Below, piece after piece: positions 37,162 through 42,737 of a stretch of DNA of 64,000 bases. Numbering within the stretch: position 1 is the stretch's first letter; every line of letters starts with the position of its first letter. The stretch is from sequence record OZ035789.1. The stretch is one strand, 5' to 3'. Made by a program: the position numbers and the translations under genes. The DNA is from Tequatrovirus BCH953P4. The notes under the pieces were generated by a model, which did no database searches, was not told where the DNA came from, and was given only the letters and a program-made list of their open reading frames with translations.

Positions 37162-37311
37162 TTACTGCATGACTGTGATAACTGTCATGATAACACGTTG
37201 AATTCCGAACGCAAGAAGACCTCCTGCTACGGCTGGAACAACACCTACCCCCGCTAGTAAAATGCCGCCAGATACTAATGCAGCGCTTGTAATACCAATG
37301 AATGGACTCAT
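37162..37311 (-). CDS. small hydrophobic membrane protein (49 aa)
   Basis: Hand-translated MSPFIGITSAALVSGGILLAGVGVVPAVAGGLLAFGIQRVIMTVITVMQ; ATGA overlap with gene 52 stop. Confidence 0.45.
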   Translation of the reverse strand: MSPFIGITSAALVSGGILLAGVGVVPAVAGGLLAFGIQRVIMTVITVMQ

Positions 37312-38640: not shown

Positions 38641-38781
38641 TTACCATACTAGTGAATGTAGTGCCATAATAACATCAGAAATGAAAAGCACGACTTGAAT
38701 TAATCCGAACATTACTCCATAATATAGTGCTATTAATAAAATAGCAAGGGCTAATGAATAGCCCAAGATTTTCTTAATCAT
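38641..38781 (-). CDS. small hydrophobic membrane protein (46 aa)
   Basis: Hand-translated MIKKILGYSLALAILLIALYYGVMFGLIQVVLF..; ATG a few nt upstream of ac stop. Confidence 0.4.
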   Translation of the reverse strand: MIKKILGYSLALAILLIALYYGVMFGLIQVVLFISDVIMALHSLVW

Positions 38782-38929
38782 TAGATAACAACACAAATGT
38801 TAAATATGCGCACATACCCTGGGCTAAAGCTTGTGAAAACACACTGCTAGCATCGATACAGATAGTTAAAACACATGCTACTATCCAACAAATAAATGAA
38901 ATAACTCCTAATAATTTTGCGATATTCAT
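38774..38929 (-). CDS. ac: Ac (acridine sensitivity) small membrane protein
   Basis: 51 aa from MNIAKLLGVISFICWIVAC.. preceded by SD GAGGAG; T4 ac size and position. Confidence 0.6.
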   Translation of the reverse strand: MNIAKLLGVISFICWIVACVLTICIDASSVFSQALAQGMCAYLTFVLLSND

Positions 38930-38983
38930 AATATTCTCCTCAACTATTTTTAGAACCAATGTACGCGAATAATGATAAAATCG

Positions 38984-39094
38984 CTAATACGCCCTGAGCT
39001 GATGCTTGCAAAATACTGAAGTTTCTCCAGTTATTACTGTTCCGATGCATAAAAAGAACCAACAGAAAAAGGCTATACCGTGAACAAATTTCAT
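38984..39094 (-). CDS. small hydrophobic peptide (36 aa)
   Basis: Hand-translated MKFVHGIAFFCWFFLCIGTVITG..; SD GAGGA overlapping stp 3' end. Confidence 0.35.
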   Translation of the reverse strand: MKFVHGIAFFCWFFLCIGTVITGETSVFCKHQLRAY

Positions 39095-39101
39095 ATTTTC
39101 C

Positions 39102-39182
39102 TCACTGGCGTCCGAAGACGCCTTTGGTTTTAAGATTGTTACGATAGAACTGCATCACGTGTTCGTTGTGGAAATTACTCAT
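39102..39182 (-). CDS. stp: Stp 26-aa peptide (activator of host PrrC anticodon nuclease)
   Basis: Hand-translated [26 protein letters not shown]; ATG overlaps ndd stop. Confidence 0.7.
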
Positions 39183-39640
39183 TAATATGCCTGCAAAACA
39201 AATTTAAAGTTATCAGCCAACATACGGTTCATTTCTTCAAGTGTTTGATACTCAGAATGATGATTACGAGTAAACGCCAAAGCTAACTGACCTTTACCAA
39301 ATCCCGTCGTCAGAGGTTTCATCTTAGAAGCAGGCAGATAAAACACTGTGTATGGAACATTGTTATTTGCAATAGTACGCGCAAGTTGAGACCGGCGTTG
39401 ACGAATATGACTTAAAACCGCACTGAATCCTTGCTTAGAACGCTGATTACCTACATAAAATCGTGCAGACACACATGGATTACTAAATGGACGACCATCT
39501 AATTTACTTACTAAAAAGTAAAATCCAGGTTTAGATAAAATATCTTTATGTGGAGTTCCTAAAAACCATTCACCACCCTTGATTGTACCAATAACAGTAG
39601 CGCCTGCGTTGTTCAGATCAGTAACAGTCATATATTTCAT
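39182..39640 (-). CDS. ndd: Ndd nucleoid disruption protein
   Basis: ~152 aa from [13 protein letters not shown].. with SD GAGGAA; T4 Ndd size and position. Confidence 0.75.
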
Positions 39641-39700
39641 ATTAATTTCCTCTAAATTATTTTCTACTCCAAGGCCGCATGAATACACACGGCCATTAAA

Positions 39701-39916
39701 TTAATCGTCGCAGTCGACGCTCAATTCCCAAAACTCTTCTACGGTATAAGTTTCAGTATCATTTTCAATACAGAAACGTTCATTACTGTTATTTACTAAA
39801 GTAGCGTTAACTGTCATTTTCTCGCTGGTGCTCTTAAGAGGCGAAATACGAATTAACTGATCACCGTTATCTAAACAAAAAATTTCACCAACTTTTACAT
39901 CTTTAAAAATTTTCAT
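39701..39916 (-). CDS. hypothetical protein (71 aa)
   Basis: ORF track. Confidence 0.5.
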   Translation of the reverse strand: MKIFKDVKVGEIFCLDNGDQLIRISPLKSTSEKMTVNATLVNNSNERFCIENDTETYTVEEFWELSVDCDD

Positions 39917-39924
39917 AATTCACC

Positions 39925-40035
39925 TCAAGGAGTATAAAATCCAAATGCAGTTGTTGACCATCCCATCCAATATGGAAAATTTGCACCAATGTAAAACATA
40001 AGAATATAAAACCAAATGTTTAGTAAATTCATCAT
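39925..40035 (-). CDS. small hydrophobic peptide (36 aa)
   Basis: Hand-translated MMNLLNIWFYILMFYIGANFPYWMGW..; ATGA overlap. Confidence 0.35.
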   Translation of the reverse strand: MMNLLNIWFYILMFYIGANFPYWMGWSTTAFGFYTP

Positions 40036-40229
40036 TTTACGCCATTCCAAATTGTTTCAACTACGGATTTTAAACCATTTTGATGAATATCAATTCCGAC
40101 TACTGTCATCAAATAGATTCCAACTACAACTGAACCTAAGGCAAAAATCAGCATGAAAATGAATAAAGCCGGAAAAATATTATCGAAAAACCATTCAATA
40201 AATGTAAAAGCACTGCGTTTACGCTTCAT
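40032..40229 (-). CDS. small membrane protein (~65 aa)
   Basis: Internal start MKRKRSAF.. with SD GAGG; TM segment FPALFIFMLIFALGSVVVGIYLM. Confidence 0.45.
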   Translation of the reverse strand: MKRKRSAFTFIEWFFDNIFPALFIFMLIFALGSVVVGIYLMTVVGIDIHQNGLKSVVETIWNGVK

Positions 40230-40236
40230 ATTTTCC

Positions 40237-40350
40237 TCACATAAATCCAAAGTAAACGTTTAATACATCAATCATTAAAACGATTGGGAATATACTCAAA
40301 ACTAATAGTATTATAACTACATTCCATATAGCTTTAATAATCTTTTTCAT
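40237..40350 (-). CDS. small membrane peptide (37 aa)
   Basis: MKKIIKAIWNVVIILLVLSIFPIVLMIDV.. after SD GGAGGAAC and an early promoter; longer track ORF rejected. Confidence 0.4.
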   Translation of the reverse strand: MKKIIKAIWNVVIILLVLSIFPIVLMIDVLNVYFGFM

Positions 40351-40376
40351 TTTCTGTTCCTCCGTAGTTGATAGGG

Positions 40377-40409
40377 TAATAATACCACAGAGGAACAGTC
40401 TTGTAAACA
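40377..40409 (-). promoter_or_regulatory. early promoter
   Basis: GTTTAC, spacer, TATTATTA, conserved leader CCCTATCAACTACGGAGGA. Confidence 0.55.
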
Positions 40410-40415
40410 ACTTTT

Positions 40416-40514
40416 TTAAAAATATTCGTAATAAATGTGAATACCAACTACTACCGCTGAAACCTGTGCAACCCACCACGCACAAGCAATAAGTATAGAA
40501 TTCATAATTTTCAT
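40416..40514 (-). CDS. small hydrophobic peptide (32 aa)
   Basis: Hand-translated MKIMNSILIACAWWVAQVSAVV..; SD GAGG. Confidence 0.3.
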   Translation of the reverse strand: MKIMNSILIACAWWVAQVSAVVVGIHIYYEYF

Positions 40515-40597
40515 AATAACCTCATTACAAAAGTAAATGTTAAACAAATTACTGGAATACTAATTAACCAAACAAAACACCACCACAGTGAACTCAT
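40511..40597 (-). CDS. small hydrophobic peptide (28 aa)
   Basis: Hand-translated MSSLWWCFVWLISIPVICLTFTFVMRLL; ATGA overlaps on both sides. Confidence 0.3.
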   Translation of the reverse strand: MSSLWWCFVWLISIPVICLTFTFVMRLL

Positions 40598-40857
40598 AGC
40601 TCAATCTCAATGATTTCAAGATTATTTTCTTTAATAGCTTTCTTTAAATCATCGTAAATAAGAACTTCCCAAGAATTGTTTAAATCACCATTCAACAAAC
40701 GCTCTTGTTGCAATTTATCAGTAAGATATGGTTGATCTGATTCATATTTAGACAATCCCAATGAAATAAATGATGTTGCATCATCAATTTCAGAATATTG
40801 TACATAAACAAATTCACCTGTGATTTTATGTTTAACATAAAAGAATTTAAATTTCAT
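40594..40857 (-). CDS. hypothetical protein (87 aa)
   Basis: ORF track; SD GGAGGAAC and early promoter upstream. Confidence 0.55.
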   Translation of the reverse strand: MKFKFFYVKHKITGEFVYVQYSEIDDATSFISLGLSKYESDQPYLTDKLQQERLLNGDLNNSWEVLIYDDLKKAIKENNLEIIEIEL

Positions 40858-40881
40858 TTTTGTTCCTCCGTAGTTGATAGG

Positions 40882-40915
40882 GTAATAGTACCACGGTCCT
40901 TGTGGTATGTAAACT
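40882..40915 (-). promoter_or_regulatory. early promoter
   Basis: GTTTAC, 17-nt spacer, GTACTATTA, conserved leader CCCTATCAACTACGGAGGA. Confidence 0.55.
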
Positions 40916-40930
40916 AGTTTATGAAAATTT

Positions 40931-41488
40931 TTAGATGGAAAGATACCATCCGTTGTAGTTGCTTTTTCGCACTACCTTACGAAGGTCTTCTCTATCCCCA
41001 ATGAACTTCGGAGTGTACTGGATGACACCTGGATGAATTTCTTTAGTGTTGAATATAATTATACAGTCCGCGACTTGATGATTTAGAATGGGCCCTAGAT
41101 TTATTCCAGAACCATATGGATACTCTCCGCTGCATCCTGTTGTTACCGAAATCCAACGTGAGTCAGTTTGATGTGTCTTAACTTCTACACGAAGCCCACA
41201 GTATTTTGGATGTGCTAAAACATCCCATGCATATGTGTACGGATCATCGACATCTTCTTGGCCTTTATTGACATATCCGCTTAGCCAATCTGCCACAAAA
41301 AACTCTGCGTACACAGCGATACGGCATCTTTCGATAACTTCTGCCTTATCCTGATTTGGGTTCTGTTTTAAAGAGTATCTTACAGTATCAGCAATTTTGA
41401 CCTTCATTTCATTGGTTAAATCGCTGTTCGATAGAGTAAATGTCGGAATCTGAAATAGTCTCTGCAAACCCGGATTCGTTTTCTGCAT
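40931..41488 (-). CDS. denB: endonuclease IV
   Basis: 185-aa ORF of T4 DenB length upstream of the ndd cluster. Confidence 0.85.
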   Translation of the reverse strand: MQKTNPGLQRLFQIPTFTLSNSDLTNEMKVKIADTVRYSLKQNPNQDKAEVIERCRIAVYAEFFVADWLSGYVNKGQEDVDDPYTYAWDVLAHPKYCGLRVEVKTHQTDSRWISVTTGCSGEYPYGSGINLGPILNHQVADCIIIFNTKEIHPGVIQYTPKFIGDREDLRKVVRKSNYNGWYLSI

Positions 41489-41544: not shown

Positions 41545-41568
41545 TAAAACAAAAGGGCCGAAGCCCTT
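41545..41568 (-). terminator. GC-rich tetraloop hairpin / terminator after the 64-aa ORF
   Basis: AAGGGC-ttcg-GCCCTT with U tract on the minus strand (also T-rich on plus). Confidence 0.45.
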
Positions 41569-41798: not shown

Positions 41799-42737
41799 TT
41801 ATTTAAATTGTTCAGTAACGTCTTCAACTACTTCGTATTGGCAGGTACGCATTTTAGCGTCGTTGTAATCAATCGGAATTGATACTACATCACGCGGATG
41901 TACTTTAACTTTTACAACTCGGCTGGTTGAACTGCCAAAGTGACGAATATAAGATTTAGAACACACATGCAGACCACGAGAACAAGTTTGTGTATCATCG
42001 TCATTCACACGAGTACGTGGCATTTTAACTACTTTACCAGGACTGTTATCAAAGGTATTTGAGTGACAGTCAAAGTAGTTGTCACGAACTACTTTCCAAG
42101 CATAGAAGTAACCATCTTCGGTGATTTCAATATCGTTTGCTACCAAGAAATCAAAGAGTCGAGATACCGCTTTTTGGCTTGGGTTTTCCAGCAGATTTTC
42201 CAAGAACGGAAAATAAAATTCAAAGTTTTCGCCTTTTTCCATCGAGTCAAGAATACGATCAACCAAACCAGACCGCAATTCAATATTTTGATAGAACAAG
42301 CTTCCACCTTCAATTCGAACATCACCGGAAATATATTTTTCAACAGCGCGACGAACATTAATTTTTTGTGCCGCTTCTTCCAATTTATCTGCTACGAGCA
42401 GATTAAGAATTTCCTGGAAGTTTGAATGAGTATTAGGAGTTGCGTTATAAGTTACACCGTCAACAGTAATTGAAATGAATTTTTTAGATGCATTCCAAAT
42501 AATGTCAGATTTAGCAACTGGAGCAATAACTGCATCGCTATTAACTTTAACTGTAATATCACCGCTAATAGTAACTTTAGGGCGTTTAGCTTCTTCAGCA
42601 TTTTTCAAAACACGACGGATTGTGTCAACCGATACACCTTGCCAATCAGCCAATTCCTGTTGGGTGTAATTACCACTTGAATACAGTTTAACAATTTCAG
42701 CTTGTTCGTTTTTGGTCAGGCATTTAATATTGTACAT
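41799..42737 (-). CDS. rIIB: rIIB
   Basis: 312-aa ORF, T4 rIIB length, adjacent to rIIA. Confidence 0.9.
   Translation of the reverse strand: MYNIKCLTKNEQAEIVKLYSSGNYTQQELADWQGVSVDTIRRVLKNAEEAKRPKVTISGDITVKVNSDAVIAPVAKSDIIWNASKKFISITVDGVTYNATPNTHSNFQEILNLLVADKLEEAAQKINVRRAVEKYISGDVRIEGGSLFYQNIELRSGLVDRILDSMEKGENFEFYFPFLENLLENPSQKAVSRLFDFLVANDIEITEDGYFYAWKVVRDNYFDCHSNTFDNSPGKVVKMPRTRVNDDDTQTCSRGLHVCSKSYIRHFGSSTSRVVKVKVHPRDVVSIPIDYNDAKMRTCQYEVVEDVTEQFK

Follow-up and report, generated by a model that had tools for sequence, protein, structure and literature searches.

The closest described counterpart of the locus considered here, a run of very small open reading frames (micro-ORFs) in a 64,000-nucleotide stretch of Tequatrovirus BCH953P4 (sequence record OZ035789.1; this whole stretch is referred to as the window), is the early non-essential cluster 52.1-ac-stp-ndd-ndd.1 to ndd.6 of bacteriophage T4. 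The T4 RefSeq names for this cluster span T4p265-T4p275 (52.1, ac, stp, ndd, ndd.1, ndd.2, ndd.2a, ndd.3, ndd.4, ndd.5 and ndd.6), and a passage of a preprint, citing Miller 2003, counts it as one of three predicted membrane-protein gene clusters. All members of the T4 cluster belong to the RNA class 'early', and at the protein level Ndd and Ndd.1 are likewise seen early (PMC9697503, supplementary file 4). The deletion saΔ9, which removes exactly 52.1 through denB, is viable: phage that carry it reach about half the yield but no longer cause the rise in phospholipid synthesis, above all of phosphatidylglycerol, that infection otherwise brings (PMC6071114). Knock-down with dCas13d (CRISPRi-ART) classed 52.1, ac, stp, ndd, ndd.1-ndd.6 and denB as 'Not Fit' and gene 52 as 'Fit', and the gene table of the same study lists Ndd.2-Ndd.6 and 52.1 as 'Unknown' (PMC11879866), which agrees with an earlier note on this DNA, made from its sequence, that had described the members as largely unstudied. 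The 2010 review by Petrov bears on this interval through denB and rIIB only, with no mention of ndd or the micro-ORFs. For Ac, a preprint reports that its expression in E. coli raises acriflavine sensitivity and that a Δac phage is resistant, and proposes a membrane-inserted Ac that obstructs AcrAB-TolC, an idea taken up again as a working assumption in a 2026 PNAS paper. The introduction of the preprint describes early ac studies as having suggested an infection-induced membrane modification that raises acridine uptake.

The region in the window is the Tequatrovirus ortholog of this T4 cluster: it matches annotated T4, T2, RB14 and others gene by gene, and has in common with T4 the gene order, the strand, the overlaps and the placement of the early promoters. 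The cluster lies on the minus strand, from denB (40931-41488) to gene 52 (start 38636), and contains eight intact ORFs of 26-65 codons plus one frameshifted ORF; these are shown below to be genuine protein-coding genes under purifying selection, and most of them probably encode early inner-membrane micro-proteins, made by coupled translation, through which the phage modulates membrane machines of its host. The features are as follows, with gene coordinates given start-stop and the stop codon included.

40885-40914, minus strand: early promoter 1, GTTTACA-N17-TACTAT with an extended TG, located between denB and orf87; the leader TTACCCTATCAACTACGGAGG comes next.
40594-40857, minus strand: orf87, 87 residues, soluble and acidic; phrog_2390.
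40511-40597, minus strand: ndd.6, 28 residues, a single hydrophobic helix; phrog_8851.
40416-40514, minus strand: ndd.5, 32 residues, hydrophobic, ATGA-coupled to ndd.6; phrog_5011.
40379-40408, minus strand: early promoter 2, GTTTACA-N17-TATTAT with TG, and a leader and ribosome-binding cassette as at promoter 1.
40237-40350, minus strand: ndd.4, 37 residues, N-terminal KK..K and one predicted transmembrane helix, GGAGG Shine-Dalgarno (SD) site; phrog_3098.
40032-40229, minus strand: ndd.3-2a (fused ndd.3 and ndd.2a), 65 residues; Pfam DUF7248, phrog_2401.
39925-40035, minus strand: ndd.2, 35/36 residues, aromatic-rich, borderline transmembrane prediction; phrog_4135.
39701-39916, minus strand: ndd.1, 71 residues, soluble and acidic; phrog_2183.
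39668-39700, minus strand: RNA hairpin in the ndd.1/ndd gap, conserved and lacking a U-tract.
39182-39640, minus strand: ndd, nucleoid disruption protein by annotation, 152 residues.
39102-39182, minus strand: stp, 26 residues, soluble and basic; Pfam PF08133.
39107-39122, minus strand: C(UUCG)G hairpin in the 3' end of stp, by folding.
38940-39094, minus strand: AcP, a second ac paralog, frameshifted to leave a 36-residue ORF (39094-38984); phrog_2501.
38774-38929, minus strand: ac, 51 residues, hydrophobic, acridine-sensitivity determinant; phrog_2501.
38641-38781, minus strand: 52.1, 46 residues, hydrophobic; Pfam DUF7396, phrog_3595.

The coding status of the micro-ORFs was assessed by chance expectation, by frame conservation and by selection. 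With strict criteria for an ORF (ATG start, SD core of at least 4 nucleotides, 25-70 residues and a 19-residue Kyte-Doolittle window of at least 1.9), the region holds five, compared with a mean of 0.03 and a maximum of one across 500 first-order Markov random sequences matched to it in composition; on the minus strand of the whole 64-kb window there are eight such ORFs, five in the cluster and three elsewhere. The frames, on whose conservation among relatives the earlier note had made its reading depend, are intact in nearly all of 16 aligned Tequatrovirus loci, which include T4 strain 147, T2, RB14, AR1, Aplg8, phage 132 and FriedrichZschokke; a scan of IMG/VR with Ndd gave five near-identical loci, and annotated phage records were used instead. 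The interruptions are nonsense codons in T2 (LC348380) at codon 11 of ac and codon 33 of ndd.3-2a, and in one IMG/VR contig (L009) a 2-nucleotide insertion near the 3' end of ndd.6 that changes the C-terminus of the product. Substitutions gather at third codon positions, and the ratio of non-synonymous to synonymous substitution rates (dN/dS, Nei-Gojobori) comes to 0.12 when the seven hydrophobic ORFs are pooled and read as annotated, versus 1.24 and 1.58 in the other two frames of the identical columns. The accepted gene ndd gives 0.09 for comparison, and ndd.5, ndd.3-2a and ndd.2 taken singly give 0.10, 0.08 and 0.11. An all-against-all comparison of the micro-proteins found no paralogy except that of Ac and AcP.

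The cluster is thus genuine and conserved, but it is already known, having been annotated since the T4 genome project: the micro-ORFs that the earlier note had treated as unannotated are all named T4 RefSeq genes with PHROG families, matched over their full length, and three have Pfam matches. Besides Stp, these are 52.1 with DUF7396 (80.1 bits) and Ndd.3-2a with DUF7248 (68.1 bits), each against a cut-off of 27; NCBIfam holds no family for any of the peptides. The 2.6-kb region is 92-97% identical in nucleotide sequence to hundreds of Tequatrovirus genomes, with phages vB_Eco_F26, 132, sutha and Aplg8 as best matches, and 552 records match the region. Public product names for the micro-ORFs are inconsistent, ranging over 'naphthalene 1,2-dioxygenase', 'sugar ABC transporter permease' and 'outer membrane protein', and many public records leave out stp, ndd.6 or 52.1; the odd names appear to be legacy predictions or transfer errors.

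The earlier note had identified Ac and Stp (51 and 26 residues) correctly: both have 100% identity with their counterparts in T4 strain 147, and the remaining peptides differ from those of this strain by at most three residues each. There are three differences from T4. First, T4 lacks orf87, which in the window stands between denB and ndd.6; at this position T2 and JoYop have an unrelated 68-residue ORF and RB14 has both, and orf87 homologues occur in Mosig-, Dhaka- and Gaprivervirus. Second, T4 lacks the second ac paralog, which the window has in frameshifted form. Third, ndd.3-2a is split in the T4 reference by a 1-nucleotide difference, whereas the window, T4 strain 147 and nearly all relatives have it intact at 65 residues. 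The difference, seen when 40032-40229 (minus strand) of the window is compared with 1333-1529 of locus L026 and 1269-1466 of locus L003, falls in codons 2-3, where the T4 reference reads ATGAACG and the others read ATGAAGCG, and yields the separate genes 'ndd.3' and 'ndd.2a'. 'Ndd.3' is a PHROG singleton and, judged from these alignments, is best regarded as an artefact or a strain-specific lesion of a single gene.

The genes are tightly chained. ATGA overlaps join orf87 to Ndd.6, Ndd.6 to Ndd.5 and Ndd.3-2a to Ndd.2, the last also readable as TGATG; the stop of ndd and the start of stp overlap as TAATG, and ac and 52.1 overlap by 8 nucleotides. Short gaps separate Ndd.4 from Ndd.3-2a (7 nucleotides), Ndd.2 from Ndd.1 (8), Stp from AcP (7), AcP from Ac (10) and 52.1 from gene 52 (4). 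The earlier note had counted at least eight ORFs, 26-65 codons long and linked through ATGA or short overlaps, and the eight intact ORFs and one broken ORF bear this out, the chain being interrupted by two larger gaps: 65 nucleotides between Ndd.5 and Ndd.4, which holds early promoter 2, and 60 nucleotides between Ndd.1 and ndd, which holds the hairpin. The same note had given every ORF an SD site of its own, which holds at five of them (cores of 4-5 nucleotides at Ndd.5, Ndd.4, Ndd.3-2a, AcP and Ac) and is weaker at Ndd.6, Ndd.2 and Stp, where the core is just 3 nucleotides; the larger gene ndd has a strong SD of its own. Upstream of the start of 52.1 no core of 3 nucleotides or more was found, and its translation presumably depends on coupling to ac. 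Beyond the cluster, an ORF at 37162-37311 (minus strand; 49 residues, glycine-rich and hydrophobic, phrog_3487) makes an ATGA overlap with the stop of gene 52 and by position and length looks like T4 MotA.1; the run of coupled micro-ORFs for membrane peptides thus extends past gene 52, beyond the coordinates covered by the earlier note.

Both early-promoter matches (40914-40885 and 40408-40379) fit the T4 early consensus GTTTACA-N17-TA(C/T)TAT with TG upstream and are conserved in the aligned Tequatrovirus loci; these two matches are what is seen here, the 'early' RNA class having been measured in T4 itself only. The micro-ORF region contains neither the late promoter motif (TATAAATA) nor a MotA-box middle promoter, and a search of Rfam gave sub-threshold hairpin matches outside the region and no family within it. 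A 38-nucleotide direct repeat (40351-40388 and 40857-40894; 95% identity, 506 nucleotides apart) corresponds to the -10, leader and SD of the two early-promoter cassettes and flanks the orf87-ndd.6-ndd.5 module, and could serve as a recombination substrate for loss or shuffling of that module. The whole 60-nucleotide ndd.1/ndd gap folds at -16.6 kcal/mol (z = -3.6), with the hairpin at its start, and the hairpin is kept among relatives with G-U wobble changes; it may be an RNA processing or stability element that divides the ndd.4-ndd.1 part of the transcript from the ndd-52 part. A 36-nucleotide stretch with the C(UUCG)G hairpin, which occupies the last codons of stp ahead of the AcP SD, folds at -12.2 kcal/mol, and a U-tract follows neither this hairpin nor that of the ndd.1/ndd gap. 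A second C(UUCG)G hairpin, upstream of denB (41553-41568, minus strand), does have a U-tract behind it and resembles an intrinsic terminator.

The view in the earlier note that most of these peptides amount to one hydrophobic helix is upheld by two scales. The best 19-residue Kyte-Doolittle window lies between 2.15 and 3.03 for Ndd.6, Ndd.5, Ndd.4, Ndd.3-2a, AcP, Ac and 52.1, and soluble values are obtained for Stp (-0.85), for Ndd.1 and Ndd (about 0.5) and for orf87 (no more than 0.5). The summed Hessa apparent free energy, a position-independent sum with the scale values of Hessa et al. 2005, is about +0.8 or lower in these seven clear cases, 2.1 for Ndd.2 and at least 8 for the soluble proteins. 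Seven or eight of the products (28-65 residues) are accordingly predicted single-pass membrane peptides, each with one hydrophobic segment of transmembrane length. Basic residues stand on the N-terminal side in Ndd.4 (three), Ndd.3-2a (four, MKRKR followed by a long transmembrane segment) and 52.1 (two), and together with the positive-inside rule these give a predicted N-in orientation. An outer-membrane or periplasmic identity, as in the public names for Ndd.2, Ndd.2a, Ndd.5 and Ndd.6, would call for a cleavable signal peptide and a mature domain able to reach the periplasm or outer membrane, and was rejected: peptides of 28-36 residues that are nearly all hydrophobic have no mature domain left, and the 65-residue layout of Ndd.3-2a, basic N-terminus and transmembrane segment, is that of a membrane anchor.

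The two ac-type genes are related at 43% identity (E = 6e-10) and have the motif SVFxQAxAQG in common; Ac itself matches phrog_2501 at E = 2e-25. The AcP gene, which is the form that Mosigvirus has, is present in 70 phage records, compared with the 552 that match the region, and encodes 51 residues in relatives. In the window it has lost one T of a T5 run (39010-39013), and the frameshift leaves 36 residues. Given that no record matches the 155-nucleotide copy of the window at 100%, and that the match spans 156 nucleotides in all 40 records listed of the 70, the deletion is private to this sequence and is either a recent pseudogene mutation or a homopolymer sequencing error. Rescue by programmed -1 frameshifting or transcriptional slippage was rejected on inspection of the sequence, the run being just four T and the P-site tRNA having to re-pair on AUU, with 156 nucleotides in the 40 listed records. 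AcP is absent from T4 and T2, and their stp/ac junctions differ: T4 has an AcP-type SD before ac and T2 an ac-type SD, which suggests that AcP may have been lost independently in the two phages. A lipobox-like IVAC at residues 16-19 raised the possibility that Ac is a lipoprotein, but the context of this cysteine is kept neither in AcP nor in the Mosigvirus homologue, whereas the earlier 'CW' cysteine is kept, and lipoprotein processing seems unlikely on this comparison.

Stp, which is soluble and basic and stands apart from the hydrophobic members on functional grounds, matches PF08133 over its full length (E = 2e-21, 75.3 bits against a cut-off of 25) and agrees with the family in its 26 residues and its place directly 3' of ndd; no difference from the family was seen. 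T4 Stp activates PrrC and inhibits EcoprrI, and the 100% identity suggests that Stp of this phage would do the same.

Beyond Tequatrovirus, the denB-gene 52 interval was taken from eight other genera, ORFs were called anew and the peptides were searched with phmmer. Five of the seven hydrophobic families have homologues in other Tevenvirinae genera, and syntenic amino-acid homologues occur in Mosig-, Dhaka-, Gapriver-, Winkler-, Karam- and Jiaodavirus. The most widely spread member is 52.1 (Mosig-, Dhaka-, Gapriver-, Karam- and Jiaodavirus, with a weak match in Winklervirus), whose C-terminal motif LFISDVI..HSL.W is strongly conserved; Ndd.4 is found in Dhaka-, Gapriver-, Winkler- and Karamvirus, Ndd.3-2a, whose C-terminal GLKSVVETIWNG tail is conserved (GLKS.VE.IWNG), in Winkler-, Karam- and Jiaodavirus, Ndd.6 in Mosig- and Gaprivervirus, and the AcP type in Mosigvirus. 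Stp has homologues in Dhaka- and Gaprivervirus. For Ndd.5 and Ndd.2 phmmer found no homologue outside Tequatrovirus among these eight genera, the interval of an Acinetobacter phage contains ndd and one 52-residue hydrophobic ORF only, and comparable synteny was not found in Krischvirus. The arrangement rIIB-denB-...-ndd-...-52 is a conserved slot, the small-gene content of which is part kept and part swapped. Gene 52 of the window encodes a product 100% identical to that of phage wV7, and rIIB lies at 41799-42737.

It is probable that the hydrophobic members form a set of early micro-proteins of the inner membrane, produced by coupled translation and modulating machines of the host membrane. 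During the first minutes after infection, ribosomes would travel along each polycistronic early mRNA and re-initiate at each coupled start, and the peptides would insert in the host cytoplasmic membrane with the N-terminus inside, where each may act as a small accessory host-takeover factor by binding and modulating a resident membrane machine. Ac would block efflux of the AcrAB-TolC type, one or more of the other peptides may affect lipid synthesis or permeability, and the soluble members would have other targets, the EcoprrI/PrrC complex for Stp and the nucleoid for Ndd. The earlier note had seen here an island directed at host membrane or envelope proteins, and this stands in part: a host membrane target is proposed for Ac only, in the preprint, and the island is functionally mixed, since the restriction/anticodon-nuclease complex on which Stp acts is cytoplasmic and Ndd has the nucleoid as its target.

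Several points weigh against this assignment. Hydrophobicity scales are the sole source of the predicted membrane insertion and topology, the transmembrane segment of Ndd.2 is borderline (Kyte-Doolittle 1.29), and Ndd.4 by itself is weakly informative as to selection (dN/dS 0.76, nine variable sites). There are natural knock-outs, of ac and ndd.3-2a in T2 and of AcP here, which indicate that individual members are expendable. Loss of ac is also how acridine resistance classically arises. In the T4 time course the protein class of the hydrophobic peptides and of Stp is 'NA' (PMC9697503, supplementary file 4), which gives no direct proof of their translation, although peptides so small and hydrophobic are difficult to detect by mass spectrometry. 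Finally, none of the members has a demonstrated host partner; the link between Ac and AcrAB-TolC is a preprint proposal.

A more specific form of the micro-protein reading, put forward here tentatively, is that each hydrophobic peptide could be the dedicated transmembrane-helix ligand of one host inner-membrane machine, a different one in each case: AcrB-type efflux for Ac and AcP, a phospholipid-synthesis enzyme for another, and transporters or membrane-anchored defence proteins for others. Specific protein contacts are favoured because polar motifs are conserved in Ac/AcP and in the tails of Ndd.3-2a and 52.1, and because the families are otherwise unrelated. By analogy, the peptides may be likened to AcrZ, the 49-residue AcrB partner, and MgrB of E. 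coli, which also have 30-65 residues and one transmembrane helix and for which binding and modulation of a large membrane machine resembles the action proposed here, the pump of AcrZ being the proposed target of Ac. Unlike these host proteins the micro-proteins are phage-encoded and early, and the likeness is functional and does not come from sequence comparison. If the peptides are ligands of this kind, the cluster would be a phage-encoded toolbox modelled on the small-protein regulators that the host itself has, the frequency with which members are gained, lost or turned into pseudogenes (AcP, T2 ac, T2 ndd.3-2a) would reflect host-specific tuning, and a ligand of a phospholipid enzyme would explain the phosphatidylglycerol phenotype of saΔ9.

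The peptides might instead act on the bilayer itself, as general permeabilisers or depolarisers in the manner of type I toxins or holin-like peptides, and alter permeability, lipid turnover, superinfection or lysis timing. The peptides are little beyond one hydrophobic helix, many small T4 early genes are host-lethal when cloned according to the literature, loss of the region alters bulk phospholipid synthesis (PMC6071114), and the membrane modification with increased acridine uptake that the early ac studies suggested, as the preprint introduction has it, fits such an action. However, this is less likely for two reasons: first, the peptides have conserved motifs that are not hydrophobic (SVFxQAxAQG in Ac/AcP, GLKSVVETIWNG in Ndd.3-2a and LFISDVIM..HSL.W in 52.1). 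Second, eight unrelated families, with paralogy between Ac and AcP only, would be redundant for a generic effect.

Counter-defence, in which the peptides would neutralise membrane-anchored exclusion and abortive-infection systems of the host or its prophages, would explain why the cluster is dispensable in the laboratory, where knock-downs cost no fitness on the host used (PMC11879866). It would also suit the nearby host-interference and anti-defence genes (stp, rIIB and, in relatives, arn-like anti-restriction genes near motA), the patchy content in close relatives exemplified by AcP and the swapping of modules between genera. Nevertheless, it is rather improbable, since 52.1, Ndd.4 and Ndd.3-2a span genera with different hosts, which fits a housekeeping membrane target better, and the phenotypes that are known concern acridine uptake and lipid synthesis only; support from PADLOC or from anti-defence families was neither sought nor found.

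Bilayer action and counter-defence are both still live rivals. Given the conservation at the amino-acid level, the two readings in which the peptides have no function are effectively excluded. That the micro-ORFs are translational relays or spacers, feeding ribosomes to ndd and gene 52, would account for the tight stop/start overlaps throughout and for the position of 52.1, which lacks an SD and ends 4 nucleotides before a fitness-relevant gene; it is highly improbable in view of the pooled dN/dS and the phmmer homologues in other genera, the strong SD that ndd has of its own, and the finding that knock-down of 52.1 is without a fitness effect and that of gene 52 has one (PMC11879866). That they are chance ORFs, arising because T-rich codons on the coding strand of an AT-rich genome specify hydrophobic residues, as in the spurious short hydrophobic ORFs elsewhere in the window, has a negligible probability against the excess over random sequence, the frame-specific selection and the conservation of families across genera.

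Transcriptome and knock-down screens of the whole genome have already covered the cluster, and Ac is under study; what the present analysis adds is quantitative evidence of purifying selection on the micro-ORFs, several corrections of annotation, and a map of the families beyond Tequatrovirus (52.1, Ndd.4, Ndd.3-2a, Ndd.6 and the Ac family). The small early genes of T4 make up one of the biggest groups of genes in a model phage whose function is still unexplained, and the eight predicted membrane micro-proteins of this cluster offer a compact set in which to seek new means of controlling bacterial membrane machines such as efflux, lipid synthesis and membrane-bound defences.

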